Of a DNA stretch of 32,000 nt, positions 1,268 through 26,606 are shown piece by piece. A program made the translations under genes and the position numbers. The notes under the pieces were generated by a model that saw nothing but the letters and a program-made list of their open reading frames with translations, made no database searches and had not been told where the DNA came from. The DNA is from Candidatus Saccharimonadota bacterium (GTDB lineage Bacteria > Patescibacteriota > Patescibacteriia > 2-12-FULL-60-25). Where the stretch lies: NCBI GenBank assembly GCA_963718585.1, contig OY970357.1:480001-512000 (forward strand), given 5' to 3'. The first letter of the stretch is position 1. Every line of letters starts with the position of its first letter.

Positions 1268-1269
1268 GG

Positions 1270-5057: not shown

Positions 5058-5090
5058 ACGTGACCCGAGTATACCACGCGCGAATGGACC

Positions 5091-5519: not shown

Positions 5520-5538
5520 TTCGTGCCGAAATCCTGTA

Positions 5539-6894: not shown

Positions 6895-6955
6895 ACGCTC
6901 CGGCGGGTCCTCCGTCAATGATGCATAGAATGAGAAAACATGGTTGAATACCCTC

Positions 6956-8248: not shown

Positions 8249-8683
8249 TCACCAATCGAACGGGATCTGCTCGATGGGCAGATTCGAACCCTCCCCTTGC
8301 CGCCACGCCTCCGTCGGAACGTTCAAAACAAACGCGTCACTCTCTGACACGTTTTGAAAGGCGTACGCCACCCCAGGCGGGATGGTGAGCAGCCGATACT
8401 CCTCGTCCGTCGGCGCGAGGAACACCTCCTGCGTCTCCTCCTTCGTCGCGGAACCTTCCCGAAGGTCGCGCAGAACGAAGCGGATCCGACCGTGAGGCAC
8501 GGCCATGTTTCCGGTATTCGTCGTGTGCAATTTCCACCCTTTGATCACCCCCGGGGCGACCTGGGAGACGTATGTCTCACCGAATGAGGAAAAATACGGA
8601 TCGTCAGACCGGAGAACGCGATAGACCGCCCCACGATCGTCGCGGGCGATCTTGAGCGGCGTGATCGCGACCCCCTCGATCAT
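8249..8683 (-). CDS. RmlC-like cupin (sugar-nucleotide 3,5-epimerase-like), 144 aa
   Basis: MIEGVAITPLKIARDDRGAVYRVL...IKGWKLHTT...GRIRFVLRDLR...PPGVAYAF follows the RmlC/dTDP-sugar-isomerase pattern. Its ATG 8681-8683 lies 2 nt after the stop of the dehydratase gene. Confidence 0.7.
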   Translation of the reverse strand: MIEGVAITPLKIARDDRGAVYRVLRSDDPYFSSFGETYVSQVAPGVIKGWKLHTTNTGNMAVPHGRIRFVLRDLREGSATKEETQEVFLAPTDEEYRLLTIPPGVAYAFQNVSESDAFVLNVPTEAWRQGEGSNLPIEQIPFDW

Positions 8684-8685
8684 AC

Positions 8686-9729
8686 TCAGGACAATTGCGC
8701 GTCGCTCAATCCGGTCTCCGCAGCCTGCTTCTTCTTGAAGTAGTTCCGATACCACGCAACCGTCTCGGCCAATCCTTCATCCAACGTATATTGCGGTTTC
8801 CAGCCAAGCAGCTTCAAAGCCTTTTCACTCGACAATGTCTGTTCATGGATCTCCGCCTTTGCCTGATTGAGGATCTTCGGTTTGAGATCCGACCCCATCG
8901 CCTTGAGGATCGCATCCACGATCTTGATCACGTCCATGCCGTTTCCGGTCGAGAAGTTGAATGCCTGACCCACGATCTCCGGACGATCCATATTCTCCGC
9001 GAACGTCAGATACGCATTGGCCGCATCCCGGACGTAGAAATAGTCACGGATGAATTTTCCATCGCTACGGATCAGCGGTTCTTCATCGTGGATGATGTGC
9101 TTGATCGTCTCCGGCACGACGCGCTGCCAGTTGAGATCGCCCGGTCCATACAAATTCCCACAGCGCGTGACCCCCACCGGAAGCTTGTAGGTGTTGTAGT
9201 ACATCTGTGCGATGAGGTCGGTGCAGGATTTGGAAACATCGTACGGATGCGTGCCCTTGAGCGGCGCCTCTTCGGTGTACGGGAGCACGGGCTGAGGACC
9301 GTAGGCTTTGTCGGATGATGCGACGAGAACGCGGGTGATGAGCGGCGAGACGCGCGCGGCCTCGAGGACGTTGCACGTGCCCATGATGTTCGCGCGGAGT
9401 GTCGGGAGCGGAGCGCGATTGCCGACCGGCGCGATCGGCTGAGCGCCGACGTGGAATACCGTATCCACCTCGTATTCGTTCAACGCACGATACATGGTGA
9501 AATAATTCTCGAAATCACCATGCACGATGTTGATCGACTTGATGGCCGGCGTCTCGAAGAGACGGCTTGATGGCACATGATCGCGCTTGAGGACGGTCAC
9601 GCGCGCACCAGCCTCGTGCAGCATCTCAGCGATGTGCGATCCGAGGAGTCCGAAGGCGCCGGTGACGAAGACGCTGCGGTTGTTCCAGAACTTCTTCCGT
9701 TCCGGAGTCAGGAGGGATTTGGTGGCCAT
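8686..9729 (-). CDS. rfbG: NAD-dependent sugar-nucleotide 4,6-dehydratase, CDP-glucose 4,6-dehydratase-like (347 aa)
   Basis: KKFWNNRSVFVTGAFGLLGSHIAEML (FWxxxxVFVTG, as in RfbG). Also FHVGAQP, SSDKAYG, and PYDVSKSCTDL (YxxxK). It shares the island with rfbF. I start at internal ATG 9727-9729; the 121-codon upstream extension overlaps the next gene and is Arg/Ser-rich junk. Confidence 0.7.
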   Translation of the reverse strand: MATKSLLTPERKKFWNNRSVFVTGAFGLLGSHIAEMLHEAGARVTVLKRDHVPSSRLFETPAIKSINIVHGDFENYFTMYRALNEYEVDTVFHVGAQPIAPVGNRAPLPTLRANIMGTCNVLEAARVSPLITRVLVASSDKAYGPQPVLPYTEEAPLKGTHPYDVSKSCTDLIAQMYYNTYKLPVGVTRCGNLYGPGDLNWQRVVPETIKHIIHDEEPLIRSDGKFIRDYFYVRDAANAYLTFAENMDRPEIVGQAFNFSTGNGMDVIKIVDAILKAMGSDLKPKILNQAKAEIHEQTLSSEKALKLLGWKPQYTLDEGLAETVAWYRNYFKKKQAAETGLSDAQLS

Positions 9730-9777
9730 ATCTAGGTTCAAAACGTTGCCATGGAACTCTGAGACCGTCAACCGAGC

Positions 9778-9811
9778 AAAAAACACCCTCCCCGGACGAC
9801 CGAAGAGGGTG
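9778..9811 (-). terminator. Rho-independent terminator after the DUF218-like gene
   Basis: The minus strand reads CACCCTCTTCGG-TCGT-CCGGGGAGGGTG followed by TTTTTT. That gives a 12-bp stem (two G.U pairs) with a TCGT loop, 28 nt downstream of the stop at 9839. Confidence 0.65.
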
Positions 9812-9838
9812 AAGGGATGATCGGGAACCCCGAGGGAC

Positions 9839-10606
9839 TCACCCGATCTGGAAGTACTCGACCGCCTCCTGCGGGCGGAGATCGAGACACGTGCGGATGC
9901 ACGTCTCGCGCCAACCCATCCGGATCTTTTGGACCTCTGAAGACAGATCGATGCCCATGTTCCGCCCGATGCACTTGTGCAGGTCCGGTGAGAAACACAG
10001 GTCCGCGAATCGCACATCCGTCCCGAGCCACTGGACCTCCTCCCACCTTCCGAATGGCATGGGAATGAAGTGAGGACGGATGCCCGCATCACGGCATCCG
10101 TATCCGACGGTCGTGAGGTAGCGGGGCATGTGATAGAGCGGAGCGACCATGACGACCTGCTTCGCGTCGATCGCCTTGAGCCATGCCGGGATCAACTTCC
10201 CTTGATCCCCGGTATTATCACTGACGCCGTCGACGCTGATGCTCACAAATAACACGGACCGGTCATCGAGACGATCACCAACGAATTGCGCGAGCTGTAT
10301 CGCGGTCATTTCCCCGCAGGATGGCCGTTTGGCTCTTCGGCCGCTCACAAGGAGATCGACCTTCGTTTTCGTATCGACGTGCTGGCTCAAGAGCGACGTC
10401 ACCGGACCGAGTCCGCCGAAGCCCCCGGCATTGGTCCACGCGATCGCCCGAACGCCATCCATGGACCAACGCGGCACATGGACGTCCGTCGCCCAGACGA
10501 GGAATCTCAGGAACGCATCGGCGTCCACATCTGCTTCTTCGCACATGGCGCGGACATGCTCTTTGTACGGCGAGATGGCCGCATGAAAGGACGGATTTAC
10601 GATCAA
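9839..10606 (-). CDS. DUF218/YdcF-like (SanA/ElyC family) protein, 255 aa
   Basis: DLLVSGRR...GEMTAIQLAQFV...SDNTGDQG...QVVMVAPLYHMPRYL matches the YdcF-type pattern (SGG...E...S.NT.EN...VTS.yHm.R). I place the start at TTG 10604-10606, which has a perfect AGGAGG (10613-10618) 6 nt upstream. The ORF track opens at another TTG, 10648. Confidence 0.6.
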   Translation of the reverse strand: MIVNPSFHAAISPYKEHVRAMCEEADVDADAFLRFLVWATDVHVPRWSMDGVRAIAWTNAGGFGGLGPVTSLLSQHVDTKTKVDLLVSGRRAKRPSCGEMTAIQLAQFVGDRLDDRSVLFVSISVDGVSDNTGDQGKLIPAWLKAIDAKQVVMVAPLYHMPRYLTTVGYGCRDAGIRPHFIPMPFGRWEEVQWLGTDVRFADLCFSPDLHKCIGRNMGIDLSSEVQKIRMGWRETCIRTCLDLRPQEAVEYFQIG

Positions 10607-10650
10607 GGCACACCTCCTTTTTTTTGCAGCCTTGAGGAGCTGATTCAATC

Positions 10651-10678
10651 AAAAAAAGACCCGGTCGTCAACCGGATC
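10651..10678 (-). terminator. Rho-independent terminator/attenuator immediately after rfbF
   Basis: The minus strand reads GATCCGGT-TGACG-ACCGGGTC followed by TTTTTTT. This is an 8-bp stem including one G.U pair, and its 5' arm overlaps the rfbF TGA. Confidence 0.5.
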
Positions 10679-11501
10679 AGACCGTTTCCCAGATCCGCCA
10701 TTTAGGATCCGCCCGCCACATTTGTTCCAGATCGTTCTTGTCCTTGGCCGTGTCCATCGAATGCCAGAACCCTTCGTGCGGATACATGGCGATCTTCCGA
10801 TCCGCGGATGCATCGATGAGTGCCTCTTCGATCATCTGATCCTTTTTGCAATAGTTGAGGAAATCCTTATGCAGGACCATGAATCCACCGTTCGTCCAAT
10901 CCGGGAGGAGTGGTTTCTCCGTGAACGAATTCACGATATGGTCTGCATCAGGCACGACGAGGCCGTATTTGGATTTCGGATGGATGCCCGTGATCGTCCC
11001 GGAAATGCCATGTTTCCCCCGTTTGTCGCCATGGAACGTACGAAGCGCCGCGAGATCCACGTCCGCGACGCCATCGCCATAGGTCAGCATGAACTCGTCT
11101 GTATCGATGTACTTCGCCGCGCGCAACAGGCGCTCACCCGTCAGCGTGGAAAGTCCCGTGTCCGCGAACGTGATATTGAAATCATCGCCCGGGTCTTCGA
11201 GCATCGTCGTCTGGTTCGATCCGAGGTCAAGCCGGAAGTCACGCGTCAGATGACGGACGTTGATGAAATAATCCTTGATCTGGTCGCCGCGATAGCCGAG
11301 GCAGAGTATGAAATTCCGGTACCCCTGATGCGCATAGATCTTCATGACGTGCCATAAGATCGGCCGTCCGCCGACCTCCACCATGGGTTTGGGTTTGAAT
11401 TCCGTTTCCTCGCGCATGCGCGTCCCCATGCCGCCACACATGATGACGACGGGAATGGATTGACGGGAGGTGTTCTGCTCCATAAGATGCTGGCCAGTCA
11501 T
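10677..11501 (-). CDS. rfbF: Glucose-1-phosphate cytidylyltransferase (274 aa)
   Basis: VIMCGGMGTRMREETEFKPKPMVEVGGRPILWHVMKIYAHQGYRNFILCLGYRGDQIKDYF and ...GGFMVL...EGFWHSMDTAKDKNDLEQMW are both near-canonical RfbF sequence. Confidence 0.92.
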   Translation of the reverse strand: MTGQHLMEQNTSRQSIPVVIMCGGMGTRMREETEFKPKPMVEVGGRPILWHVMKIYAHQGYRNFILCLGYRGDQIKDYFINVRHLTRDFRLDLGSNQTTMLEDPGDDFNITFADTGLSTLTGERLLRAAKYIDTDEFMLTYGDGVADVDLAALRTFHGDKRGKHGISGTITGIHPKSKYGLVVPDADHIVNSFTEKPLLPDWTNGGFMVLHKDFLNYCKKDQMIEEALIDASADRKIAMYPHEGFWHSMDTAKDKNDLEQMWRADPKWRIWETV

Positions 11502-11510
11502 GACAGGCGC

Positions 11511-11539
11511 ATTCTACGGACCGCTTGCCCGACTGTCAA
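11511..11539 (-). promoter_or_regulatory. Consensus-grade sigma70 promoter for rfbF (TTGACA-17-TAGAAT)
   Basis: On the minus strand the -35 TTGACA is at 11539..11534, followed by a 17-nt spacer and the -10 TAGAAT at 11516..11511. Only 9 nt remain before ATG 11501, so the mRNA is near-leaderless. Confidence 0.6.
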
Positions 11540-11556
11540 ACCGGAAATTACGCGAA

Positions 11557-12441
11557 ATGGACCCAAAAACCGACCATCCGGACATCAGCGTGATCATCGT
11601 GAGCTGGAACGTCCGGGAGCTTCTCCGGGCCAATCTGACGCGACTCTTCTCGCTCAAGACCGATGCGAATATCGAGGTCTTTGTGGTCGACAATTATTCG
11701 CATGACGGCACGGCGTGGATGGTGCGGAAAGAATTTCCCCAGGTCCATCTCATCACGAATGCATGGGATGCAGGATTCGCCGGTCCGAACGACCAGGCGC
11801 TCCGGCTCGCGAAAGGCGACATCTGCATCTTGCTCAATCCGGACATGCTTGTCGATGAAGGCGCGTTCGAGCGCGCCGCCAAGGAGCTCATCCAAGACCG
11901 CGGTATCGGCGTGCTCGGGATCAAACTCATCGGCCAAAACGGAAAACCAGTGAGCAATGTCCGCCGCTTCCCGACCTTCGGTTCCCAACTCGCGATCCTC
12001 CTGAAACTCCAACACCTTTTTCCGAGCCTTGTCGCGCGGTACATGGCAACGGATTTCGATTATGACCGATCACAGGATGTGGATCAGGTCCGCGGATCCT
12101 TCTTCGCCTTTCGACGCGAAATGCTCGAACGCGTGGGCTATCTCGACGATGGCTATCATATCTGGTTCGAAGAAGTCGACTTTTGCAAACGGGTGAAGGC
12201 GAAAGGTTTGCGCGTCCGGTACTGCGCCGACGCACGGGCGCGTGATTACGTCGGAAAAAGTGCGTCGCAGATGTCACGATTGAGCGCTCAACGGATCTTC
12301 ACGGCGAGCATGGTCCGCTATTTCCGCAAATGGCACCCATCCTGGCAGGCGTATACCATCGCCGCTCTGAGACCCATCGCACTTGCGTCAGCCGCAGGAG
12401 CAGACGCCGTCACTTGGATGAAAAATAGGATGTTCGTATGA
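11557..12441 (+). CDS. GT2 glycosyltransferase, WbbL/rhamnosyltransferase-like (294 aa)
   Basis: ISVIIVSWN...VVDNYSHDGT...NAGFAGPNDQA...LLNPDMLVDEG...WFEEVDFCKRVKAKG. I start at internal ATG 11557. Its stop overlaps the next start in an ATGA at 12438-12441. Confidence 0.85.
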   Translation: MDPKTDHPDISVIIVSWNVRELLRANLTRLFSLKTDANIEVFVVDNYSHDGTAWMVRKEFPQVHLITNAWDAGFAGPNDQALRLAKGDICILLNPDMLVDEGAFERAAKELIQDRGIGVLGIKLIGQNGKPVSNVRRFPTFGSQLAILLKLQHLFPSLVARYMATDFDYDRSQDVDQVRGSFFAFRREMLERVGYLDDGYHIWFEEVDFCKRVKAKGLRVRYCADARARDYVGKSASQMSRLSAQRIFTASMVRYFRKWHPSWQAYTIAALRPIALASAAGADAVTWMKNRMFV

Positions 12442-14264
12442 AGGCCGCTCTCCAACTCTCCTGTTACAACGGCGGGCGGTATCTCCCCTATCTTTTCGCT
12501 TCCCTCAAACACCAGACGTTCCGCAACTGGGAATTACACGTCCTCGACAACGCCTCGGATGAGGAGAATGCAACTCTCATCCGATCCGCCGTGGAGAATG
12601 CCGGCTTCCCGATCATCCTTGATCGCGTTGATCAGAACATCGGATTCGCCGGCGCACATGACCGTCTCTTTTCTTCGCGATCTCCAGACGCAGAATACGC
12701 TGTCCTGTTGAATGATGACGCGATCCTTGAAAAAGATTTCCTCGAACGGCTGATCGCCTTTCTTGATTCGCATCCTGCGTGTGCATCTGCATCCGGGACG
12801 ATCCTCCGATGGGACTTCGACAAACGCGACGAACCGGATCAGGGGCGTACGGGCATCGTGGACTCCCTTGGCCTTGCGGTCGGATGGAATGGCTTCGTCA
12901 AAGACGTTGGCGCCGGTCTTCGTTTTTCCGAAGCGAACGCCCCACATACGCCAACAAAGATCTTCGGACCTTCCGGCTGTTTGCCCATCTATCGCGTGTC
13001 CGCTGTTCTTGCAACGAGCCCGGACGGCGCGCTCTTTGATGCCGCCTATGGCTCGTACAAAGAAGATACGGAACTTGCCTATCGTCTCCGTGCCGCTGGA
13101 TCCACATCCATGATCGTTCCAGATGCCGTCGCCTATCATCGTCGATCGTTCCGCGCCGGACAGACGAAACGGGCCGAACATCCGTATGCATACGAGTCGT
13201 TCCGCAATCACCTATGGATGGACCTCGTCCACCTTCCGATCGGTTCGCTCATGACCAACCGCTGTCTCGTCGTCCCGGCGGAATTGGCAAAGATCGCTTA
13301 TTGGAGCGTGAAACGTCCGTCATTCATCGCGCGTCTGTGGCAGGACACGTCCCGACGTTGGGACGACCTCATGCGCCGCCGCACCCATGCGGCACATCTC
13401 CGCGCTCATCGCGGTCGTCTCACTGCGCCCTACCCGAAACCCACGGCAGATATCAACATCGTCATCGTCTCGCATAATGAATTGAGCATTGAAACGCTTC
13501 GATCCGTACAGACCGCACGCGAGCGATTCCGCGGCACGACCGCACTCGTGGTCGTGGACAACGCATCGACCGAATACCGTGCGAATGAACTGATATCTTC
13601 CATCATTCCGGATGCATGGGTCCTCCTCCGCAACGGCGATCACGGATACGGCCGCTCCATGAACATGGGCGCGGACTGGGTGGACGCAAAAGCCTATTTC
13701 ATCCTCAATCCGGACACCTTGCTCGACGATCCGGAGATCCTCAACCGGCTGTGGGCGTATCTTGATTCCCACGCAGACGTCGGACTCGTGGGTCCAAAAC
13801 TGCTGAACTTCTCAGGTGAATTGCAGGACACCTGCCGCCGCTTCCCGGCCTGGTACCAGCCGCTCATCCAGCGCACCTCACTCAAGCAGACCGCGTTCGG
13901 AAAAAGATACCTTTCACATTTTCTCTTGAAAGACGCGGATCGGACACGCGACATGGATGTAGATTGGGTTCAGGGCTCGGCCATGTTCGCGCGCGGCGAC
14001 GTCTGGAAGAAGCTCGGCGGTTTCGATGATCGGTATTGGCTCTACTTCGAAGATATCGATCTTTGTCGACGGGTTTGGCATTCTGGAAAACGCGTGGTCT
14101 GCACCGTGGATACGCAACTGCGTCACGCGCACGGTCGGCAATCTGCGAAGATCCGCAACATGATCATGAATATCCTCAAGACCAAGGAGACGCGCGGTCA
14201 TCTCAACAGCTGGCGGAAATATCTCTGGAAGTGGAAATTCGTCTCACATCCCCGATCACAGTGA
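12438..14264 (+). CDS. Double-module GT2 glycosyltransferase (608 aa, two GT2 domains in tandem)
   Basis: Module 1: LSCYNGGRYLPYLFASLKHQT...VLDNASDEEN...GFAGAHD...LLNDDAILEKDF...YKEDTELAYRLRAAG. Module 2: INIVIVSHN...VVVDNASTEY...GYGRSMN...ILNPDTLLDD...YFEDIDLCRRVWHSG. Confidence 0.85.
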   Translation: MKAALQLSCYNGGRYLPYLFASLKHQTFRNWELHVLDNASDEENATLIRSAVENAGFPIILDRVDQNIGFAGAHDRLFSSRSPDAEYAVLLNDDAILEKDFLERLIAFLDSHPACASASGTILRWDFDKRDEPDQGRTGIVDSLGLAVGWNGFVKDVGAGLRFSEANAPHTPTKIFGPSGCLPIYRVSAVLATSPDGALFDAAYGSYKEDTELAYRLRAAGSTSMIVPDAVAYHRRSFRAGQTKRAEHPYAYESFRNHLWMDLVHLPIGSLMTNRCLVVPAELAKIAYWSVKRPSFIARLWQDTSRRWDDLMRRRTHAAHLRAHRGRLTAPYPKPTADINIVIVSHNELSIETLRSVQTARERFRGTTALVVVDNASTEYRANELISSIIPDAWVLLRNGDHGYGRSMNMGADWVDAKAYFILNPDTLLDDPEILNRLWAYLDSHADVGLVGPKLLNFSGELQDTCRRFPAWYQPLIQRTSLKQTAFGKRYLSHFLLKDADRTRDMDVDWVQGSAMFARGDVWKKLGGFDDRYWLYFEDIDLCRRVWHSGKRVVCTVDTQLRHAHGRQSAKIRNMIMNILKTKETRGHLNSWRKYLWKWKFVSHPRSQ

Positions 14265-14266
14265 AT

Positions 14267-15427
14267 ATGGAACTTCCCCGCGTCGCCATCATCTACCTGA
14301 CGTACAACGGCAAAGATTCGTACGAGGACATCACGCGCGTCTTCACATCACTGACCACACTCGACTATCCGCGCGACCGCGTAGAGATCATTTGCGTTGA
14401 GAATCCGTCCGCGCATGGCGCGAGCTGGCCATTCATCGAAAAAGAGTGGTACCCGCGCGTGGGCGTGGATTTTCCTGCCATTACGATCGAGAAGAACGAG
14501 AAGGATGGCGGATACTCCGGCGCGAATGATGTCGGCGCGCGCATTGCAAAGGAGCACGGGTGCGCGTATGTCTTTTTGCTCAACCAGGACACGGACATCG
14601 ATCCAAAGTTCCTCCGTGCCGCCGTGGAGCGCGCAGAATCCGACCCCAAGATCATGCTGGTCCAGTCATTGCTCCTGCTCGGACAGGACCGGAACCTGGT
14701 CAACTCGGTCGGCAACCGCTATCACTTCCTCGGCTTTGGCTATGCGGGCGGCAACGGTTGGACCGTGGATCAGGCACGGAGCTGGATCGAAACGGAACGG
14801 AAGACGAATCCGGACCTGGAAGTCCCGTACGTGAGCGGCGCCGCGGTACTCGTCCGCCTTTCCATGGTCGACCAGATCGGACTTTTTGATGCGCCGTTCT
14901 ACATGTACCACGAGGATGTGGACGCCACATTCAACGCGCGCATCCATGGATGGAAATCCGTTTTGGAACCTTCAAGCGTCGTGTATCACTACTACGCGTT
15001 CTCCAAGAGCATCAAGAAATTCTACTGGATGGAGCGGAACCGCTTCATGGTGGATCTCACGTATTACAAACTCCTCACTCTGCTCCTCATGGCTCCCGCC
15101 TTCTTCGGGGTGGAATGTGCGAGCATGCTCTTCGCGATCAAGGGTGGCTGGTGGCGCGAAAAAGGCCGTGCATGGGCTTTTTATTGGCGCCCATCGACGT
15201 GGGCGTGGGTCGCAAAGCGCCGATCCCGCGCGATGAAGGAACGCATCATCTCCGATCGGGAATTCTTGAAATGGGCGGACAGCAAGATCCTCTTTCAGGA
15301 ACAGTCACCCGGTGACAGCGACAATGCGTCGCTCAAAAAAGACGTCGGCGGCTCACTGGTCCAGCGCGTCGCCAATCCCCTTCTCACCGCGTACTGGAAA
15401 CTGATCTACACCCTGATCCGCTGGTGA
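14267..15427 (+). CDS. GT2 glycosyltransferase with C-terminal membrane segment (386 aa)
   Basis: VAIIYLTYNGKDS...ICVENPS...GGYSGANDVG...FLLNQDTDIDPKF...MYHEDVDATFNARIHG, with TM LLTLLLMAPAFFGVECASMLFAI. I start at internal ATG 14267, 2 nt after the previous stop. Confidence 0.85.
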   Translation: MELPRVAIIYLTYNGKDSYEDITRVFTSLTTLDYPRDRVEIICVENPSAHGASWPFIEKEWYPRVGVDFPAITIEKNEKDGGYSGANDVGARIAKEHGCAYVFLLNQDTDIDPKFLRAAVERAESDPKIMLVQSLLLLGQDRNLVNSVGNRYHFLGFGYAGGNGWTVDQARSWIETERKTNPDLEVPYVSGAAVLVRLSMVDQIGLFDAPFYMYHEDVDATFNARIHGWKSVLEPSSVVYHYYAFSKSIKKFYWMERNRFMVDLTYYKLLTLLLMAPAFFGVECASMLFAIKGGWWREKGRAWAFYWRPSTWAWVAKRRSRAMKERIISDREFLKWADSKILFQEQSPGDSDNASLKKDVGGSLVQRVANPLLTAYWKLIYTLIRW

Positions 15428-16828
15428 TCAGATGTCGAATCCGAATCGGTTCAATATCTCCACCGCCTCCAGGTTCTCGGACAGTTCCGGATAGCGGTAA
15501 TCGTCTTTGTCATACGGCGTGGACCCGAGCCCGAGAAACGTGGTCCGCACATCCGTCAACGGGACATAGGTATGATAGACCCCGGCCGGGACACGCAGTC
15601 TCGGCATTTTTTCATTCGTCTCCAGCGTAAAGACCGGAACATCGTGCGACGTATCTGGCGCATCGATCCCCAGGATCACGCCGACGGTCTTGCCTCTGGT
15701 CGGAGAATCTACGCGAAGATCAGACAGGATCCATAACCCGACACCGGACATCGGCACGAACAATTCATGCAAAACAGGATGATAATGGCCGCCACGGAAC
15801 ACGCCGCGCCCTTTGGCGGATGTCGCATAGATATCCTGCAGATCGTGGCCGAATCCCGCGGAGTTCCGCGTGCCGCCTGGAAGGACATGTAAGACCGCGC
15901 CCGCCTCATCTCCGATCCGCGGTTGGAGCTCGACCGCAACGCCGCCGATCCCCAACGCGTGCCATGTTGGCGTGAATGGCGGTGGTGACGAATGCAGGTA
16001 TTCGCGTAATGCCTCTTTCCAGTCCCGCATCTTCGGTAGTTTTGTTGATGTCAGCACGCTGTAATCCGGACGTGCGGCCGGACGTTTGAGTGATGACGGA
16101 TCGCGCGGCGCAAACTCTACCGGGAGATCAAGGATCTTCCCGATCTCGCACGCCCACTCATGCCACGTGGCACCGCCTTCATTCGTCATGTGATAGACCC
16201 CCGGCGCTGGGCGTTGTTTCAAGAAATGTTCATCGAGATGACGCGCGACGTCATCTACATATGTTGGCGCGGACCGTTCCCCGCTGTTCACCAGCACGCG
16301 TGCCGCTTTTTGTGCATCATTCACGATGATCTCAACGAAACTCGGCTTGGATCCCGGTTCATCCGCCATCGGCCCATACAGACGAGAGAGACGGATCACG
16401 TAGGCGTCCGTATTTTCACGGAGCACTGCCTGTTCGCCCGCGAGCTTGGACGCGCCATAGACGCTGATCGGATCCGTTGCATCATCTTCCACGTACGGCG
16501 TGTCCGATGTCCCGTTAAATACATAATCTGACGAGAAGTGGATGAACCCCATCCCAAGCCGCTTTGTGGTCTCCGCAAGCATCTTCGGCATCTCGCCATT
16601 GAGCCGCATGGCGATAGCTCTGCCATCCCCCTCCGCACCATCGACATTGTTGTAGGCAACGCAATTGATAGCCATTTCCGGAGCTTCGGTGCGTAAAAAC
16701 GCCTCGACCGCCTGAGGGTCAAGGTGATCGAAGGCATCCGGCGCCGGAGCGACCACCTCATGATGTGGCCACGATCGACGCATGGCGCTCCCAAGACGCC
16801 CGGAACCACCTAATATCACGATCTTCAT
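15428..16828 (-). CDS. Fusion protein: RmlD-like sugar-nucleotide 4-reductase (N-terminal ~285 aa) + cupin/RmlC-WxcM-like domain (C-terminal ~175 aa), 466 aa
   Basis: N-terminal part: MKIVILGGSGRLGSAM...INCVAYNNVDGAE...HFSSDYVFNG...PISVYGASKLAGEQ...VIRLSRLYG, which is the RmlD pattern with YxxxK. C-terminal part: IGGVAVELQPRIGDEAGAVLHVL...FRGGHYHPVLHELFVPMSGVGLWIL...VPAGVYHTY, which is a cupin. Confidence 0.8.
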   Translation of the reverse strand: MKIVILGGSGRLGSAMRRSWPHHEVVAPAPDAFDHLDPQAVEAFLRTEAPEMAINCVAYNNVDGAEGDGRAIAMRLNGEMPKMLAETTKRLGMGFIHFSSDYVFNGTSDTPYVEDDATDPISVYGASKLAGEQAVLRENTDAYVIRLSRLYGPMADEPGSKPSFVEIIVNDAQKAARVLVNSGERSAPTYVDDVARHLDEHFLKQRPAPGVYHMTNEGGATWHEWACEIGKILDLPVEFAPRDPSSLKRPAARPDYSVLTSTKLPKMRDWKEALREYLHSSPPPFTPTWHALGIGGVAVELQPRIGDEAGAVLHVLPGGTRNSAGFGHDLQDIYATSAKGRGVFRGGHYHPVLHELFVPMSGVGLWILSDLRVDSPTRGKTVGVILGIDAPDTSHDVPVFTLETNEKMPRLRVPAGVYHTYVPLTDVRTTFLGLGSTPYDKDDYRYPELSENLEAVEILNRFGFDI

Positions 16829-16859
16829 GCCCGCATTTCAGCACGGAACGCCGTTCTGT

Positions 16860-17270
16860 TCAACCAATGGAACTTCGGATCTTTTCCGCGATCTGCTCCG
16901 CCTCACCTTCAGCGTAGGGCCTCCCGGGCCAATGTTTCAATCCATCGTCTGCCCGACGCGGCACAACATGCACATGAAGATGCGCGATCACCTGGCCTGC
17001 GATCGCACCATTATTCTCTTCGAGATTGAACGCCTCACAGATCCCGCTTGTCACAAGAGCCCTTGAAACCGACTGCGTTGCACGGATGAGCCGATCCAAT
17101 GTTTCCGTGTCCGCCGCATTGAATCCTTCTACGTGCACCTTCGGCACAACGAGGACGTGCCCCGGATTCACGGGATTGATATCGAGGAACGCGTAGATAT
17201 GATCATCTTCGTACACGGACGTGGACGGGATCTCTTTGGCGATGATCTTGCAAAAAAGGCAGTCAGACAT
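16860..17270 (-). CDS. HIT-family (Hint-like) nucleotide hydrolase/transferase (136 aa)
   Basis: CLFCKIIAKEIPS...DINPVNPGHVLVVPK...GQVIAHLHVHVVPR (the histidine triad HxHxHxx). Confidence 0.9.
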   Translation of the reverse strand: MSDCLFCKIIAKEIPSTSVYEDDHIYAFLDINPVNPGHVLVVPKVHVEGFNAADTETLDRLIRATQSVSRALVTSGICEAFNLEENNGAIAGQVIAHLHVHVVPRRADDGLKHWPGRPYAEGEAEQIAEKIRSSIG

Positions 17271-17282
17271 ATGGGATGATGA

Positions 17283-17645
17283 TCACTCTGTTCTACCGAA
17301 GATGGCGACAAGCGACAAGACGGCGATGACGCCATAGGCACCGAGGAGCACCAGTCCGCTCAACCCCAACGCATTGATGCGTGTCCACAGAAAGAACCCG
17401 CCGAACAGCAACGCAAGCGCGATGAACACGACTTGGAGGATCTGTGACACGCGTCCTGTTTCCGACGGCATCGCAGCAGACGCGACGAGGAGTGCGGCAA
17501 CGACGATCCCCGTATCCGGCAGATCAAGGAACGGGGAGACTGACCCGGGAAGCAAACGTTCCAAAACGAGCAAGAGGACATAGCCACACGTCGCGGCTGC
17601 GGCCGCATGGAAAAAGGATCGCTGGAGAAAATGCTTCAGGGTCAT
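17283..17645 (-). CDS. Small 4-TM membrane protein (120 aa), unknown family
   Basis: I start at ATG 17643-17645 (MTLKHFLQ...), which forms an ATGA overlap with the stop of the upstream gene. There are four hydrophobic segments. I recognise no family motif. Confidence 0.6.
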   Translation of the reverse strand: MTLKHFLQRSFFHAAAAATCGYVLLLVLERLLPGSVSPFLDLPDTGIVVAALLVASAAMPSETGRVSQILQVVFIALALLFGGFFLWTRINALGLSGLVLLGAYGVIAVLSLVAIFGRTE

Positions 17646-19093
17646 AACCGGTGCCATGCATTCGCCAATTCCTGACGAAGGATCTTCCACCAATCTCCAA
17701 AGGTCACAGCCTGACGATGGAAGGTCAGATCGATCTTTCGGATGTCGATCGCCCCGGCGCGTGCCATGAGGCCTGGTGCGGACACCACGAAACGCAGATT
17801 ATCGAGCGTCGGGTCCACGGTGAAGCTTCCCGTATATCGATACCACCCGTCACCAAGCGCCTGCGGACGCGTGTACGGCGTCAGGACCGCGGTGATCCCG
17901 TCTCGCTCCAACTGCGTCCCATCTGACATCCGTCGCGGACGCGGTTCAAAGAACGCATCTTGTCGCAAGGCGAAAAACCCATCGCCGACGAATCGGACAT
18001 CCCCTTTTTCCGCAGAAAGTTCCACCGGCGTGGTGATGTCATCGGTCCGGTCAAGGCGGATCTGCGTATGCGTTGCCGGTATGCGTCCAGATGTCGGTCC
18101 AAGATCCACCTGTTGGAGACCCTCTACATGGAATGTCTCGGCCACGATATGGCGTGAATTGGTCCATGCGATCGCCGGCGAAGTGGTCGCGGAATAGCCG
18201 ACCAGATCACCGAACACGAGACGCGGTCCTACGACCCACCGACGACTATCTGTCTCGATCGCGCGGATGAAGACATCGTCTTGTGCCGTGATGCTGATCC
18301 GATAGATGCCTACGTCCGCGTTCGGGACATCGACCGTGTGTGTGAAGGCGGCCCCCATCGTCGCATCACGACTCCCGGACAAAGTGACCGTCTCTCGCGA
18401 GATCTCCGTATCATCGCGGAACACGCGGATCGCGGCGACATCCCCTCCCGTTGTCCGATTCACTGCCTGAAGCGTGAACGTCATATGCACATGGCCATCC
18501 GGAACGATCCAAAAATCATGCGAGCCGCGTAACGAAACCACGGTTTTGACGCTCGGCCCAGGCGGATCCGCGATGTTCGGCCACGAGGCGGTCGCATCCC
18601 AGACCGCAAGACCACGCGTATCCGGGTTCGAGAGACGGACGGGCAGCGTTCCCTGTTTGACGTATCCGGACATCGCCCCTGATATCACCGGGGTCCAAGC
18701 AGCTGACGCAAGTTCGGAGGAATACATGGGCTGAAGTTCCAGATCTTGCCCAGCTGCATCACGCACGATCCCGAAATCCGCCAATGGCTGTCGGATCGGA
18801 CGAAACTCCATCGAAACATCCACCTTTTCGTACGGGCCGGGGGCATGCACCGTAAAATAGACTGGATCCGCCGTGATCCGCTGACCGGTCCACCCATCCG
18901 CCTGGACGCCCGGACTCGTCGTCCGCAACGCAGGCAAAAAAGGCATGATCCACGCACTCTTTCCATCAACGTCCGATGAAGCATGAAAAACCCCGGATGG
19001 CGGAAACCGAAGCAGAACGAGCCACCCCACACCAAACGCCACGATGATCCATGGCAGAGCAAAGAGGACGGAAACGAGTCGTGGAAGCTTCAT
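17642..19093 (-). CDS. N-terminally anchored extracytoplasmic protein (483 aa), no recognisable domain
   Basis: N-terminal TM LVSVLFALPWIIVAFGVGWLVLL followed by ~450 aa of beta-strand-like sequence (e.g. HMTFTLQAVNRTTGGDVAAIRVFRDD, IYRISITAQDDVFIRAIE). It is ATGA-coupled on both sides (19090-19093 and 17642-17645). Confidence 0.7.
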   Translation of the reverse strand: MKLPRLVSVLFALPWIIVAFGVGWLVLLRFPPSGVFHASSDVDGKSAWIMPFLPALRTTSPGVQADGWTGQRITADPVYFTVHAPGPYEKVDVSMEFRPIRQPLADFGIVRDAAGQDLELQPMYSSELASAAWTPVISGAMSGYVKQGTLPVRLSNPDTRGLAVWDATASWPNIADPPGPSVKTVVSLRGSHDFWIVPDGHVHMTFTLQAVNRTTGGDVAAIRVFRDDTEISRETVTLSGSRDATMGAAFTHTVDVPNADVGIYRISITAQDDVFIRAIETDSRRWVVGPRLVFGDLVGYSATTSPAIAWTNSRHIVAETFHVEGLQQVDLGPTSGRIPATHTQIRLDRTDDITTPVELSAEKGDVRFVGDGFFALRQDAFFEPRPRRMSDGTQLERDGITAVLTPYTRPQALGDGWYRYTGSFTVDPTLDNLRFVVSAPGLMARAGAIDIRKIDLTFHRQAVTFGDWWKILRQELANAWHRL

Positions 19094-20634
19094 GGATTCA
19101 ATGAAGACGCAATGTACATCGTCTGATCCCCCGCGACAAAGACCGGATCCAGGCCGATCCCATCATCCGAGAACGACGCGATCCGATCATCCGTCAGCGT
19201 CTGGCTATAAAGATAGACCGGGTCCCCGTTGTTGATCTCCGCAAGCAGCTTGCCATTCCCCGGAAGCGGGCTTGCTGAACGGAAGACCGGAAAAAAGATC
19301 TTATCGCTTCGTTCAGAGACCACGACCGCGTCTGGTGAGAGCGTTTGCTCGGCCGCATCACGGATCGCTCCGTACCCGGAAAGCTCCACCAGGGACTGTC
19401 GAATGCCTTCATCATCGCGCACCGTCGCGGTCCATACGCCATACGAAACGATCAGCAAACAAAGTACTGCGACAAGCAAACCAGAACCTTTCTTCATCTT
19501 TTGTCGCAAAACATGGACGAGACCGGCGGCAGCCATCGCAAACACCGGCGCGAGCGGGATCACATACCGTAAGAAAGAGTTCGCCGTAGACACCACGTTC
19601 ACTCCGACGTGATCCTGATAGATCGCCTCGCCATACATCGCTGCCAGGACCACAAACGTCCATGCACCGATAACGACTGCCGGCCGCCAGGACTTCTTCC
19701 ACAGACTCACGACCGCCGCGCCGACCGCTAGTGCGCTCCAAGGCCCTAAAATGGCGCCGAGATACCAATAGACATTGAAAAAGACGTCGCGCGGATGGAC
19801 CCCGAACGGCCACGATGCCGCCGTACGCGCGATCGCGGGGCCTGCAGATACAGCTGCCGCGATCGGATCATGGAGAAAGTATCCGATCGTGAACGGCGCT
19901 CCATACGTCATCCACGCAACCACACCGACGGCCGCGCCGACGAGCGCCGTTGCGATGATGAAGACGATGAAGGCCACGCGTTCCTTCCGTTGCGGCATCT
20001 TCGTCTCACGCAGGTGCCACGCGAGCCAGAGCCACGGGATCAACCAAAAAAGCTCGACCGGACGGATCGCGATCGCGAGTCCGCAGGCGATTCCAGCGCC
20101 AGCCATCCTGAAGGGATCTCGTTTGGACCAGATCAAATAGGCCGCCCAAACGGCGAGACAGACGACAGGCAGATTCGGGAACAGCCCTCGATTCGCGTAT
20201 AAGATCACGGTCGGATGTGCCAACCAAACGGTCACCGCCGCGATCGCCGGCCAGCGCCCAAAACGTTTTCCCCAGACCCAAATGGGATACGCCGTGATCA
20301 GGACGAGAAAAGCGGTGAAATAGGCCAATGCGAGATCTCCAAGAAAGAAATGCAAGACCCCAAGGATGAACGGCAGACCAAGGAAACCGACCGGGACGAT
20401 CCAACCTCCGCTCGTCACATAACTCCGCGGATGCAGCCACGGGGAGACGTCCGATGAGGGTTCCGCGATCCGCATTGCGCCGGTCGCAGAAAAGACACGA
20501 GCGGAAACCGCGTTCGCCGTCTCGTCCGGGCTCAAAAAAGCGCGCGTTCCCTGCGCGGGGATCATCGTATAAAGCGCGGCGCAAAGCGCGATCAACGCGG
20601 CCGCGATGGGGATGGCCAACCAATGGCGACGCAT
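19090..20634 (-). CDS. GT-C fold membrane glycosyltransferase (ArnT/PMT/GT39-like), 514 aa
   Basis: There are 10 or more hydrophobic helices. An acidic SPDE motif sits in the first extracytoplasmic loop, right after TM1, as in GT-C enzymes. A C-terminal ~110-aa soluble tail follows. Confidence 0.7.
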   Translation of the reverse strand: MRRHWLAIPIAAALIALCAALYTMIPAQGTRAFLSPDETANAVSARVFSATGAMRIAEPSSDVSPWLHPRSYVTSGGWIVPVGFLGLPFILGVLHFFLGDLALAYFTAFLVLITAYPIWVWGKRFGRWPAIAAVTVWLAHPTVILYANRGLFPNLPVVCLAVWAAYLIWSKRDPFRMAGAGIACGLAIAIRPVELFWLIPWLWLAWHLRETKMPQRKERVAFIVFIIATALVGAAVGVVAWMTYGAPFTIGYFLHDPIAAAVSAGPAIARTAASWPFGVHPRDVFFNVYWYLGAILGPWSALAVGAAVVSLWKKSWRPAVVIGAWTFVVLAAMYGEAIYQDHVGVNVVSTANSFLRYVIPLAPVFAMAAAGLVHVLRQKMKKGSGLLVAVLCLLIVSYGVWTATVRDDEGIRQSLVELSGYGAIRDAAEQTLSPDAVVVSERSDKIFFPVFRSASPLPGNGKLLAEINNGDPVYLYSQTLTDDRIASFSDDGIGLDPVFVAGDQTMYIASSLNP

Positions 20635-20707
20635 GGTCTCAGTGTATCATGGATGGCTTGCTTTTTCGTATCTTCTGGTCTCCATTCGGATATGCTAGGG
20701 TGGCATT

Positions 20708-22195
20708 ATGACAAACCGTCTGTACGCTATTTTGATTGCGGGCGTCCTCTGCGCAAACATGGCCTTGGTCCCATTTGCGGCATCTGCGCAAACATTGGCA
20801 CTTGATCCTGGCTTCGATCCCAATCACATCCTTGATGACAGCGATATCTTCGACGTCAATGCGATGGATCACGCTGATCTGATCACCTTTTTGCGTGCCA
20901 AAGGCACACTCGCGAACGCGCAGGTGACGGATATCGATGGGGTGACCAAGACCGCAGCCGATGTCATCTGGCGCGTTGCGAATACGTATAAGTTGAACCC
21001 GAAGTATCTATTGGCCTTGATCCAAAAGGAACAATCGTTGGTCGAGGACCCCGCACCGTCCCAACGACAATTCGACTGGGCAGCCGGATACGGCGTCTGT
21101 GACTCCTGCAGTACGAACGACCCCTCGATCTCAGACTTCAAAGGATTCGCGAATCAGCTTGAATGGGCCGCGAAACAATACCGTGAAAAATATCTTTTAC
21201 AGATCCTTTCCGGCGGAACGACCCTTGGAGGAACTCGCCCCGGTCTGACCATCGACGTGGATGGGATGCCCGTGACGCCGGTCAACAATGCCACTGCCAT
21301 GCTCTATGCCTACACGCCGCATCTGCATGGGAACCTCAACCTCTGGCGCATCTGGCAACGCTGGTTCAGCCAGGCGTACCCGGACGGCACGGTCGTCAAG
21401 TCAGAACCAAGCGGGAACATGTATTTGATCCGCCTTGGCCAAAAGCGTCTTTTCGCCTCCCCGGCGGTGGCGATCTCCATGACCGACCCGGATAAGGCGA
21501 TCTCGACCTCAGACACGGATCTAGCATCGTATCCGGACGGGCCGGTCATCCGCTTTCCGAAATATGCGCTGGTCAAGGACCTCGAAGGTCGGATCTATCT
21601 CCTGACCGGGGATGTGAAGCGGCACATTGAGAACATGGAGGCGTTCCATAAATTTGGATTTAACGAAGACGAGGTAGTGACCGTAGACAATGATACGGAG
21701 CTCACAGACTATCCAGATGGGCCCTCGATCTCGGTCGACACGCAATTCCCGCAGGGCGTCGTCCTGCAGGATGCGACCGGCGGAACGCTGTGGTATGTGG
21801 AAGACGGCGTCCGGCATATCATCATGGATCCGGTCATGCTGGCGCTCTACTTCCGCGGGCGGAACGTCCGTAAAGCCGAGGCAACTGAACTGCGCAATTA
21901 CACGGTCGGTGATCCGTACCAGTTCCATGACGGAGAACTCGTAAGACGTGATTCCGAACCAGCGGTCTATGTGGTCCAACAAGGGACCCTCCGGCCTTTC
22001 CTTTCTGCGGATACCTTTGAGTCCATGGGGTACCAGTGGCAAAATGTGGTCATGGTTTCAGATGCCGCATTGAACGGGTATACTATCGGCGCAGCCATGA
22101 GCCTCCAGCCAAACGTTCCGACCGTACCGCAACCGACCACGCTCACGGCCTCAGACTCCACTGGAACCGTCTCCGCGGCGTTCGCAAACGAGTAA
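20708..22195 (+). CDS. Secreted protein (495 aa): signal peptide, conserved N-terminal domain, four tandem ~58-aa repeats, Pro/Thr-rich tail
   Basis: Signal peptide MTNRLYAILIAGVLCANMALVPFAASA/QT. The N-terminal domain contains NPKYLLALIQKEQSLV. The repeat pattern is described in the next feature. Confidence 0.8.
   Translation: MTNRLYAILIAGVLCANMALVPFAASAQTLALDPGFDPNHILDDSDIFDVNAMDHADLITFLRAKGTLANAQVTDIDGVTKTAADVIWRVANTYKLNPKYLLALIQKEQSLVEDPAPSQRQFDWAAGYGVCDSCSTNDPSISDFKGFANQLEWAAKQYREKYLLQILSGGTTLGGTRPGLTIDVDGMPVTPVNNATAMLYAYTPHLHGNLNLWRIWQRWFSQAYPDGTVVKSEPSGNMYLIRLGQKRLFASPAVAISMTDPDKAISTSDTDLASYPDGPVIRFPKYALVKDLEGRIYLLTGDVKRHIENMEAFHKFGFNEDEVVTVDNDTELTDYPDGPSISVDTQFPQGVVLQDATGGTLWYVEDGVRHIIMDPVMLALYFRGRNVRKAEATELRNYTVGDPYQFHDGELVRRDSEPAVYVVQQGTLRPFLSADTFESMGYQWQNVVMVSDAALNGYTIGAAMSLQPNVPTVPQPTTLTASDSTGTVSAAFANE
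21377..22096 (+). repeat. Four tandem protein-level repeats (~58 aa each) inside CDS 20708..22195
   Basis: aa 224-281, 283-341, 347-403 and 407-463 share the pattern [FYH]P.G.lV+....g.vYl[il]..G.kR.[if]......f...g[fy].....v..v....l..Y..G. Examples: GNMYLIRLGQKRLF, GRIYLLTGDVKRHI, GTLWYVEDGVRHII, PAVYVVQQGTLRPF. Confidence 0.65.
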
Positions 22196-25660: not shown

Positions 25661-26606
25661 CAAACCGGATTCCCGTTTTCACGGGAATGATACACGGCGA
25701 CGCGCCATCTTCTTCGGCACGTCGGATTTCGCCGTGCCAAGTTTGAGATCGCTTTCCGATGATCCCCGCTTCGATGTCGTTGCGGTCGTGACCCAACCGG
25801 ATCGACCGGTCGGTCGACATGCAACGATCACACCCCCGCCCGTGAAGATCGCTGCGACTGAACGGAACGGTGAGATCTTTCAACCGGAAAAACTGATGGA
25901 ACTGAAAGATCGACTCCCCGCAGCCGATGTCTTTGTCGTCGTGTCTTACGGAAAGATCCTCCCGCAGTGGCTTATCGAGCTCTCATCGCACGGGATCGTG
26001 AATGTGCACGGATCGCTTCTTCCTCGATGGCGTGGCGCTTCGCCGATCCAGGCCGCGATCGCGGCCGGTGATGAAATGACCGGTGTCACGATCATGCAGA
26101 TCGACGCGGAACTTGATCACGGACCCATCCTTGCGACCGCTGAAGAGCCTATCCGTCCTGATGATACGGGAGGATCCTTGCACGACCGTCTCGCCGAGCT
26201 TGGGGCGAAGATCCTGCCGGATACACTCGCCGGTTTTCTCGACGGAACGATCACCCCGCAAGACCAAGAGCACGATCTCGCCACCTTTTGTCGAACGTTG
26301 AAACGGGAAGGTGGGAAATTGGATACATCAAGATCCGCAGTAGAATCAGAACGCAAGATCCGCGCCTACTCGCCCTGGCCGGGGACCTATATTGAAACAG
26401 AAGGAAAACGCCTCAAGATCCTCACAGCGCGAGTCGCGAAAGACGACGCGTCGAAGTCCCCTGGCACGCTTTTCATCCGAAACGCCCTCCCCTGCCTCGC
26501 CTGCGCCGACGGAACTGTCCTTGAACTGACCATGGTCCAGCCCGAAGGGAAAAAGCAGATGAGCGGAATGGATTTTACGCGAGGGTCTTCGAATGTGACT
26601 CCTTGA
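25647..26606 (+). CDS. fmt: Methionyl-tRNA formyltransferase (319 aa from ATG 25647; ATG 25617 also in frame)
   Basis: AIFFGTSDFAVPSL...VVTQPDRPVGR...NVHGSLLPRWRGASPIQAAI...MQIDAELDHGPIL. The only canonical in-frame starts upstream of the conserved IFFGT lie inside the GIY-YIG ORF. Confidence 0.9.
   Translation: MINSDKPDSRFHGNDTRRRAIFFGTSDFAVPSLRSLSDDPRFDVVAVVTQPDRPVGRHATITPPPVKIAATERNGEIFQPEKLMELKDRLPAADVFVVVSYGKILPQWLIELSSHGIVNVHGSLLPRWRGASPIQAAIAAGDEMTGVTIMQIDAELDHGPILATAEEPIRPDDTGGSLHDRLAELGAKILPDTLAGFLDGTITPQDQEHDLATFCRTLKREGGKLDTSRSAVESERKIRAYSPWPGTYIETEGKRLKILTARVAKDDASKSPGTLFIRNALPCLACADGTVLELTMVQPEGKKQMSGMDFTRGSSNVTP
25665..25689. repeat. Right terminal inverted repeat / hairpin (attcccgt-tttc-acgggaat)
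   Basis: Perfect 8-bp stem 25669-25676 / 25681-25688. It is the inverted counterpart of 25355-25379 and lies inside the fmt reading frame. Confidence 0.7.

Follow-up and report, generated by a model that had tools for sequence, protein, structure and literature searches.

The locus described here raises the question of what machinery three adjacent membrane protein genes, accompanied by sugar nucleotide genes, provide at the surface of a member of the Patescibacteria (candidate phyla radiation, CPR), a group that makes up a large share of bacterial diversity and is mostly uncultured. To our knowledge, the envelope glycans of the Patescibacteria are essentially uncharacterised and their cells lack an outer membrane. 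The window analysed is the whole stretch of 32,000 nucleotides (nt) at positions 480,001 to 512,000 of contig OY970357.1 (assembly GCA_963718585.1), in which five genes of the minus strand code for a 514-amino-acid (514-aa) glycosyltransferase of the GT-C type, a 483-aa protein (hereafter X483), a 120-aa protein with transmembrane (TM) segments (hereafter the small TM protein), a HIT protein and an RmlD::cupin fusion. The first three proteins are read here as a conserved membrane module of the Patescibacteria, translated together, in which a GT-C holoenzyme would consist of the transferase, a separate beta-sandwich acceptor subunit and a small membrane subunit, and a probability of about 55% is given to this reading. 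The wider claim is made more tentatively, its chances being put somewhat short of even, that a previously undescribed three-subunit GT-C holoenzyme occurs throughout the Patescibacteria, with acceptor recognition placed on a doubly membrane-tethered beta-sandwich subunit, which a new type of small TM subunit would stabilise. An original prediction, made from the letters of the window, had proposed a role in extracytoplasmic glycosylation, and this role was found to remain the best reading of the locus.

Organization of the operon

The GT-C gene (19090-20634) was found to be the first of the five minus-strand genes, followed by the X483 gene (17642-19093), the small TM gene (17283-17645), the HIT gene (16860-17270; 136 aa) and the RmlD::cupin gene (15428-16828; 466 aa). 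Direct reading of the sequence gave the junctions that had been predicted, with an ATGA overlap of the GT-C stop and the X483 start (19093-19090), a second ATGA between X483 and the small TM gene (17645-17642), and intergenic gaps of 12 nt (17282-17271) and 31 nt (16859-16829). The start of the small TM gene at the ATG at 17645 was supported by homologues that align from this methionine, and two other in-frame starts were present at 17657 (ATG) and 17693 (TTG). The predicted extended -10-like box, TGATACACT, was likewise found on the minus strand at 20649-20641, 6 nt upstream of the GT-C ATG at 20634.

Overlaps of 4 nt and TGnTAnnnT matches both occur often and carry no significance by themselves; the two features are, however, conserved in position in orthologous loci. 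A scan with one genome per species gave 73 loci at 31-60% identity, termed Uhrbacteria loci here after the name on the closest homologues (Patescibacteria / Candidatus Uhrbacteria), of which 70 were evaluable for the counts of the small open reading frame (ORF) and of the GT-C junction. About 80 related loci were examined in all (designated by L numbers, L001 being that of the window), and distant X483 relatives at 22-37% identity were inspected on their contigs. The overlap of the GT-C stop and the X483 start was 4 nt long in 40 of the 70 loci, and the small TM gene was found to start within -20 to +15 nt of the X483 stop in 60 of the 73. A TAnnnT hexamer ending 4-10 nt before the GT-C start was present in 37 of 60 other loci, compared with 8.8 +/- 2.7 (maximum 17) in 1000 shuffles, and 15 of those 37 also contained the TGn extension. 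The sigma-70 scan found no full promoter at TGATACACT and no -35 partner. The position of the box and the conservation of TAnnnT support a putative -10-only promoter and an operon mRNA that would be leaderless or near-leaderless.

In one 429-aa database protein (P0314), the C-terminal part of a GT-C homologue runs into the N-terminal part of an X483 homologue, after which the sequence degenerates; rather than a natural fusion, this most likely reflects a frameshift or an assembly error at the ATGA junction. No GT-C::X483 fusion was found among the 150 best representatives of the X483 family.

The 514-aa glycosyltransferase

By its predicted structure, the 514-aa protein is a glycosyltransferase of the GT-C fold, divergent and similar to PMT_2 and ArnT proteins. 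Its own sequence gave no significant Pfam or NCBIfam match, the best family models, PIG-M (E=0.011) and LA_3751/2 (E=0.055), both being below the cut-off, and no relatives were found among PDB sequences by profile and single-sequence searches. Because the sequence itself is invisible to Pfam and NCBIfam, the GT-C label was set through homologues and structure. PMT_2 (PF13231) was matched by 26 of 74 homologues, with a best E-value of 3.6e-7, and some homologues carry the database name GT39. The AlphaFold 2 (AF2) model, with a predicted local distance difference test score (pLDDT) of 92.9 and a predicted template modelling score (pTM) of 0.93, contained a helical bundle over residues 4-431, followed by a small alpha/beta domain at the C-terminus (about residues 435-511), and the sequence has at least 10 hydrophobic segments (8-13 TM helices being typical of GT-C proteins). 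The 13 best structural matches in the PDB were all GT-C proteins (ArnT, ALG9, STT3, AftA, Pmt4, ALG3 and PimE), the best of them being ArnT 5ezm (E=1.1e-7, TM-score 0.58/0.56), and the matches after the first 13 were unrelated transporters with E>0.08.

A conserved acidic motif was found in the first extracytoplasmic loop of the protein, where S35-P36-D37-E38 residues were invariant in 74 GT-C sequences, D37-E38 being located at the start of the loop between TM1 (residues 4-21) and the helix 36-51. The active-site pair is D55/E56 in ArnT and D77/E78 in Pmt1 (PMC7801869), and Asp37-Glu38 are the candidate catalytic pair at the equivalent position. Both the GT-C identity given in the original prediction and the catalytic acidic loop on which it had been made to depend were thus upheld by the structural matches, the PMT_2 matches of the homologues and the invariant D37-E38 after TM1.

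The 483-aa partner protein

X483 had been described as an orphan, a description that no longer applies, since its family was found to contain at least 1,254 clusters at 50% identity (E<=1e-3), 394 of them at E<=1e-30, in a profile search of 1.84 billion cluster representatives. The members found in this search were nearly all full-length (470-530 aa), and a word-indexed search gave 174 close homologues of similar length. The homologue search with the distant alignment A4 gave 9 matches, and the only named protein in the cluster look-up of distant members was from a Patescibacteria group bacterium. X483 matched no model in Pfam or NCBIfam and had no relative among PDB sequences, and in lenient family scans of 76 distant members only unspecific beta-sandwich noise was seen (Por_Secre_tail, 6 members).

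The AF2 model of X483 (pLDDT 90.8, pTM 0.82) contained a TM helix at residues 5-29, followed by an all-beta ectodomain of about three beta-sandwich modules (35-460) and an amphipathic C-terminal helix (465-482) with conserved W468, E475, A479, W480 and R482 residues. The alignment contained 33 invariant columns, including R189-G190, Q209, R213, D272, H315 and H322. The Foldseek search of the PDB and of viral models gave only local beta-sandwich likeness, with TM-scores of at most 0.18 in both libraries, to CBM51, CBM22, CBM35, Cry toxin domains, PorU, viral jelly rolls and phage fibres; the copper monooxygenases DBH and PHM were among the weak matches, with a probability of 0.1-0.2. AftD and Emb chains were not among the top 50 structural matches. 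X483 is proposed to be the acceptor-binding subunit.

The 120-aa membrane protein

Four hydrophobic segments were found in the 120 residues of the small TM protein. Its family contained invariant Ala17, Glu29 and Pro33 residues and a nearly invariant Gly34, and the remainder was not conserved beyond TM1 and the following loop. The end of TM1 was found to contain the motif E-x3-P-G-x-V-x-P-F, which is predicted by the positive-inside rule to lie at the outer face. The protein is proposed to be a membrane subunit that partners X483, and not a GtrA.

Half-length versions of 61-97 aa, with 2-3 hydrophobic segments and corresponding to the N-terminal half only, were found in about 13 of the 70 Uhrbacteria loci (L008, L009, L013, L016, L017, L019, L021, L027, L030, L032, L035, L039 and L069) as well as in the distant locus L083 (7406-7612). 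They retain only TM1, the E-x3-PG motif and TM2, and in the majority of the loci concerned no HIT gene was detected immediately 3' of them.

Conservation of the module

In almost all loci with enough flanking sequence, tblastn gave the order PriA(-), Memo(-), 495-aa protein(-), followed by GT-C(+), X483(+), small ORF(+) and HIT(+). The GT-C, X483 and small TM genes were adjacent and co-oriented in nearly all of the 73 species-level genomes, and a small hydrophobic ORF was present directly 3' of X483 in 69 of the 70 evaluable loci, all 69 matching one hidden Markov model (HMM). A small TM homologue followed X483 in all six distinct distant contexts. The order GT-C, X483, small TM was confirmed by HMM in L075-L079 and in L081/L082, and the same order was given by the gene calls in L084-L086, where the upstream gene of L084 and L085 contained a PMT_2 match. 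The upstream flanks of the distant loci were found to contain DnaK-DnaJ genes (DnaJ in L078 and L079), a CDP-alcohol phosphatidyltransferase gene (L075, L084 and L086; CDP, cytidine diphosphate) or a cluster of an epimerase and a GT2 gene (L085), and the triad was usually followed by HIT and rml-type genes. The three genes, which the original prediction had expected to stay together, were therefore found to do so in related as well as in distant genomes.

Of the 73 loci of the genome scan, 45 had the HIT gene next after the small TM gene, as did L075, L078, L080, L084 and L086.

Synteny is unusually deep in the Patescibacteria. A block coding for a PEGA-domain protein (on the opposite strand), an S41 CtpB-like peptidase, a NUDIX protein and CTP synthase was found at 3393-8245 of the window, in most Uhrbacteria loci (L007, L010 and others) and in the distant locus L084.

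Many public records of metagenome-assembled genomes with the locus (L006, L007, L015, L016, L021, L026, L037 and others) bear the title 'uncultured Gammaproteobacteria', and one bears that of 'Candidatus Methylomirabilis sp.'; such records look mislabelled or mis-binned, the locus being clearly from Patescibacteria.

The HIT gene and the sugar nucleotide cassette

The HIT protein was found to belong to the canonical HIT/HinT family of nucleotide hydrolases and transferases, with an intact histidine triad (HLHVHVV) and matches to Pfam HIT PF01230 (4.5e-27) and NCBIfam HinT (1.1e-27, the best match being the Mycoplasma HinT model). Its gene overlaps the next sugar nucleotide gene by 4 nt in L029 (a dehydratase), L075 and L084. 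The RmlD half of the fusion protein (residues 1-279) matched RmlD_sub_bind PF04321 at 3e-65 and the PDB RmlD 1vl0 at 2.6e-33 (residues 1-278 only), and gave 208.2 bits with TIGR01214, for which the cut-off is 224. The cupin half (about 295-466) was weakly RmlC-like (dTDP_sugar_isom, E=9e-5, residues 295-387). Among the 73 loci the RmlD::cupin fusion was found elsewhere only in L006 and L057.

The cassette at 8249-15427 lies between the HIT and RmlD::cupin genes and the conserved PEGA gene. On the minus strand it was found to contain genes, assigned by Pfam, for a small cupin of 144 aa (8249-8683), an NDP-glucose 4,6-dehydratase (NDP, nucleoside diphosphate; 8686-9729; TIGR02622 at 2.1e-54, below the curated cut-off) and a glucose-1-phosphate nucleotidylyltransferase (10677-11483; TIGR02623 at 2.9e-76, below the curated cut-off), as well as a 255-aa protein with no assigned family (9839-10606), followed by three GT2 genes on the plus strand (11500-15427; Pfam). 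The best NCBIfam matches of the cassette were glucose-1-phosphate cytidylyltransferase and CDP-glucose 4,6-dehydratase, and not those of the dTDP-rhamnose type (dTDP, deoxythymidine diphosphate), which suggests a CDP-linked 6-deoxyhexose pathway with two cupins, the 255-aa protein and RmlD rather than a dTDP-rhamnose pathway. The nucleotide carrier of the RmlD reaction is uncertain, because the neighbouring genes look CDP-glucose-type.

The slot between HIT and the PEGA, S41 peptidase, NUDIX and CTP synthase block was almost always found to contain nucleotide-sugar genes, typically a 4,6-dehydratase and a nucleotidyltransferase in Uhrbacteria loci (for example L029), and in the distant lineages rmlB/rmlA or rmlABCD genes occupy the place of the cassette. 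Sugar nucleotide genes adjoin the module in most Uhrbacteria loci and in seven of eight distinct distant contexts (L075, L078, L081, L083, L084, L085 and L086), the contig of L080 being too short. Of the predicted link between a nucleotide-sugar enzyme and the GT-C gene, the general part thus recurs across lineages, whereas the combination of RmlD::cupin and GT2 genes is lineage-specific. That the link is an accident, as the presence of RmlD::cupin in only three loci might indicate, was rejected, since rmlB/rmlA or rmlABCD genes occur at the same position in distant and in Uhrbacteria loci. The sugar region resembles a variable glycan cassette beside conserved machinery and is a possible source of the sugar, outside the conserved core.

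Proposed mechanism

A -10-only promoter would give rise to the leaderless or near-leaderless mRNA, and the stop/start overlaps would couple the translation of the GT-C protein, X483 and the small TM protein, which would be made together and, we infer, assembled in the membrane. The GT-C protein would use a polyprenyl-phosphate-linked sugar as donor at the outer face, the acid/base pair of catalysis being formed by Asp37/Glu38 in its first extracytoplasmic loop. Anchored to the membrane through a TM helix at its N-terminus and an amphipathic helix at its C-terminus, X483 would position a glycopolymer of the cell envelope (or a glycolipid or protein) above the active site; acceptor recognition may have been delegated to it because the soluble C-terminal domain of the GT-C protein is small. 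The small TM protein would serve as the membrane partner or anchor of X483 through its conserved TM1, with the invariant Glu and the Pro-Gly turn at the outer leaflet. The sugar chemistry, of the residue transferred or of the acceptor, would probably come from the adjacent variable 6-deoxyhexose cassette, which is CDP-glucose-type with RmlD::cupin in the window and rmlABCD elsewhere, and HIT would be co-transcribed and coupled more tightly to the cassette than to the membrane proteins.

Rismondo, Gillis and Gruendling (PMC8035078) have speculated that acceptor binding by small GT-C enzymes may require a second protein. A literature search for CPR together with GT-C found nothing, and a paper on rhamnose in Saccharibacteria was about the wall of the host and not that of the episymbiont.

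Alternative explanations

Several observations weigh against a three-subunit holoenzyme. The X483 and small TM genes were found without an adjacent GT-C gene in L018, L080 and L083, and because these loci keep the pair, X483 with the small protein is the strictest unit of the locus, followed by the GT-C gene and then by HIT. The synteny reaches housekeeping genes on both sides, PriA and Memo on one and the PEGA, S41 peptidase, NUDIX and CTP synthase genes on the other, and because this order extends so far, even in L084, adjacency is weaker evidence here than usual. X483 gave no global structural match in the libraries searched, its likeness to carbohydrate-binding modules (TM-score of at most 0.18) being local and generic, and the abundance of invariant charged and His residues would be just as compatible with an enzyme. 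The catalytic assignment of D37/E38 was made by position and not by residue-level structural alignment. Finally, no polyprenyl-phosphate sugar synthase or flippase was found to be consistently linked to the core.

The first two of these observations also favour an arrangement in which X483 and the small TM protein make up a separate envelope system, such as an adhesin, a wall-binding protein or an anchored enzyme, and the GT-C gene is adjacent only through frozen gene order; the many invariant Arg, Asp, His and Glu residues of X483 would then suggest a catalytic or metal site. This arrangement is considered unlikely, as the 4-nt stop/start overlap of GT-C and X483 is kept in 40 of the 70 loci, the pair stays together where the upstream neighbours differ completely, and the conserved parts of both proteins are placed on the same (outer) face of the membrane.

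The original prediction had seen in the locus a three-component system similar to Gtr or Arn, in which the 120-aa protein is a polyprenyl-phosphate-sugar flippase, the lipid-linked sugar is synthesised by the GT2 proteins, and X483 serves as accessory subunit or as acceptor. The GT-C protein of such a system is real, GT2 genes are present nearby in the window, and the size and four hydrophobic segments of the small protein fit the GtrA type (PMC8035078). However, none of 34 members of the small TM family matched PF04138 (GtrA) at E<=1, whereas a genuine 120-aa GtrA matched it at 2.6e-13 in the same scan, and hhalign of the small TM profile against GtrA gave a probability of 0.08%. Conservation limited to TM1 and the next loop, together with the 2-TM halves of about 13 loci and L083, also argues against a flippase of the GtrA or ArnE/F type, and the small TM gene tracks X483 rather than GT-C, even where no GT-C gene is adjacent. 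Nor is a role of the GT2 genes in lipid-sugar synthesis supported: the set of three was matched fully or almost fully in only two of the 73 other loci (L006 and L057, with only the end of GT2_386 visible at the contig edge of L057), and weaker or partial matches were found in four more (L002, L004, L012 and L016). Each GT2 protein contained 0-1 weak hydrophobic segments, none contained the two C-terminal TM helices of the GtrB/CsbB type, and no NCBIfam match of the GtrB/ArnC type was obtained. Little credence is given to the Gtr/Arn-like scheme.

A 735-aa protein coded at 26575-28782 (minus strand), 6 kb from the operon, was found to contain an N-terminal GT2 domain and about 12 hydrophobic segments without family assignment, its gene adjoining a GT4 gene (28779-29933) and a Wzx-type flippase gene (29857-31323). 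The 735-aa protein is a possible candidate for the missing synthase of the lipid-linked sugar, or for a synthase-exporter. The Wzx-type gene is not in the conserved module, and GtrA was not found.

A protein O-glycosyltransferase similar to PMT, with X483 or the divergent 495-aa neighbour as its target, is also improbable, although homologues are named GT39 or match PMT_2 and Pmt4 is among the structural matches. The neighbour (20708-22195, plus strand), transcribed divergently from the operon, is an anchored or secreted protein with a Thr/Pro-rich tail and is conserved at this place in about 60 Uhrbacteria loci, features that favour it as a target. It is absent, however, from the distant loci that keep the triad, ArnT, ALG9 and STT3 are better structural matches than Pmt4, and X483 is conserved over its whole length, including the C-terminal helix, too strongly for a mere substrate. 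The recurrent link is moreover to 6-deoxyhexose genes, whereas PMTs use mannose.

That the module builds or extends a membrane-anchored lipoglycan by PimE/Emb-like chemistry on a phospholipid anchor, and does not decorate a wall polymer, is very improbable. In its favour are the CDP-alcohol phosphatidyltransferase gene that is translationally coupled upstream of GT-C in L075, L084 and L086 and the presence of PimE and AftA among the structural matches. Such a gene does not, however, adjoin the operon in the window or in Uhrbacteria loci, CDP-alcohol transferases are general phospholipid enzymes, and PimE matched weakly (E=0.027).

Flanking genes of the window

The 495-aa protein was found to contain about four internal repeats of about 55 aa (by eye), and searches of Pfam and the PDB returned no relatives. 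In distant lineages its place is taken by proteins of 665-718 aa to which it shows no homology, and as a candidate part of the core it was rejected for its absence from the distant lineages that keep the triad. The 665-718-aa family, without a Pfam match, is divergently transcribed upstream in L075, L084 and L086, the loci in which the gene of the 190-211-aa CDP-alcohol phosphatidyltransferase was found to overlap the GT-C start (L075, 3778-4353; L084, 5852-6424; L086, 5669-6304). The left end of the window (167-2322, minus strand) contained the genes of FtsW/RodA (PF01098, 2.5e-92) and MraY (TIGR00445, 1.6e-69); the FtsW ORF as listed begins with a TTG (1633) and shares about 360 nt with MraY, and its true start is probably further downstream.

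Comparison with known systems

The locus, with its conserved three-gene module, HIT gene and variable 6-deoxyhexose cassette, offers an entry point to the envelope chemistry of the Patescibacteria, and two sizeable families of "hypothetical proteins" gain from it a functional hypothesis based on context. The naming of any small 4-TM protein beside a GT-C gene as a flippase was found to be unsafe. If the three-subunit holoenzyme is real, it would be the first concrete example of a split GT-C system and a conserved step of envelope-glycan assembly in the Patescibacteria; it would mean that the acceptor recognition of a GT-C enzyme can sit on a separate subunit, and would change the reading of small orphan GT-C genes in other bacteria.

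The placing of a HIT gene beside membrane protein genes has a parallel in the hitABL genes of Mycoplasma hominis (P60/P80 and HinT), where a HinT-type gene is co-operonic with the genes of a surface membrane complex in a minimal genome (PMC539234, PMC1173108). The locus described here differs in that HIT is coupled to sugar nucleotide genes, and the parallel implies no homology of P60/P80 to X483 or the small TM protein.

ArnT (GT83, 5ezm) shares with the 514-aa protein the GT-C fold (TM-score 0.58/0.56), the Asp-Glu pair after TM1 and a small C-terminal soluble domain. The two proteins have only about 12% identity, with no PDB match at the sequence level, and ArnT works alone and on lipid A, which would not be the acceptor here because the Patescibacteria are taken to have no outer membrane.

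The multi-component systems of Gram-positive wall polymers (CsbB/GtcA/YfhO, GacI-GacJ/GacK/GacL and CsdA/CflA/CsdB; PMC8035078) likewise contain a GT-C enzyme at the outer face of a single-membrane cell, include small membrane proteins and lie beside genes of 6-deoxyhexose (rhamnose-type) polysaccharides. Unlike in those systems, the core was found linked neither to a conserved GT2 lipid-sugar synthase nor to a GtrA or Wzx gene; it instead contains two obligatorily linked unannotated proteins, the single-pass beta-sandwich protein X483 and the small TM protein, the latter being unrelated to GtrA or GacJ.

The proposed logic, a catalytic TM domain combined with extracytoplasmic beta-sandwich modules that bind the acceptor polymer, is that of AftD, EmbA/B/C and possibly YfhO (PMC8035078). 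In contrast to AftD and the Emb proteins, the beta modules of the locus are found on a separate polypeptide with its own anchor.

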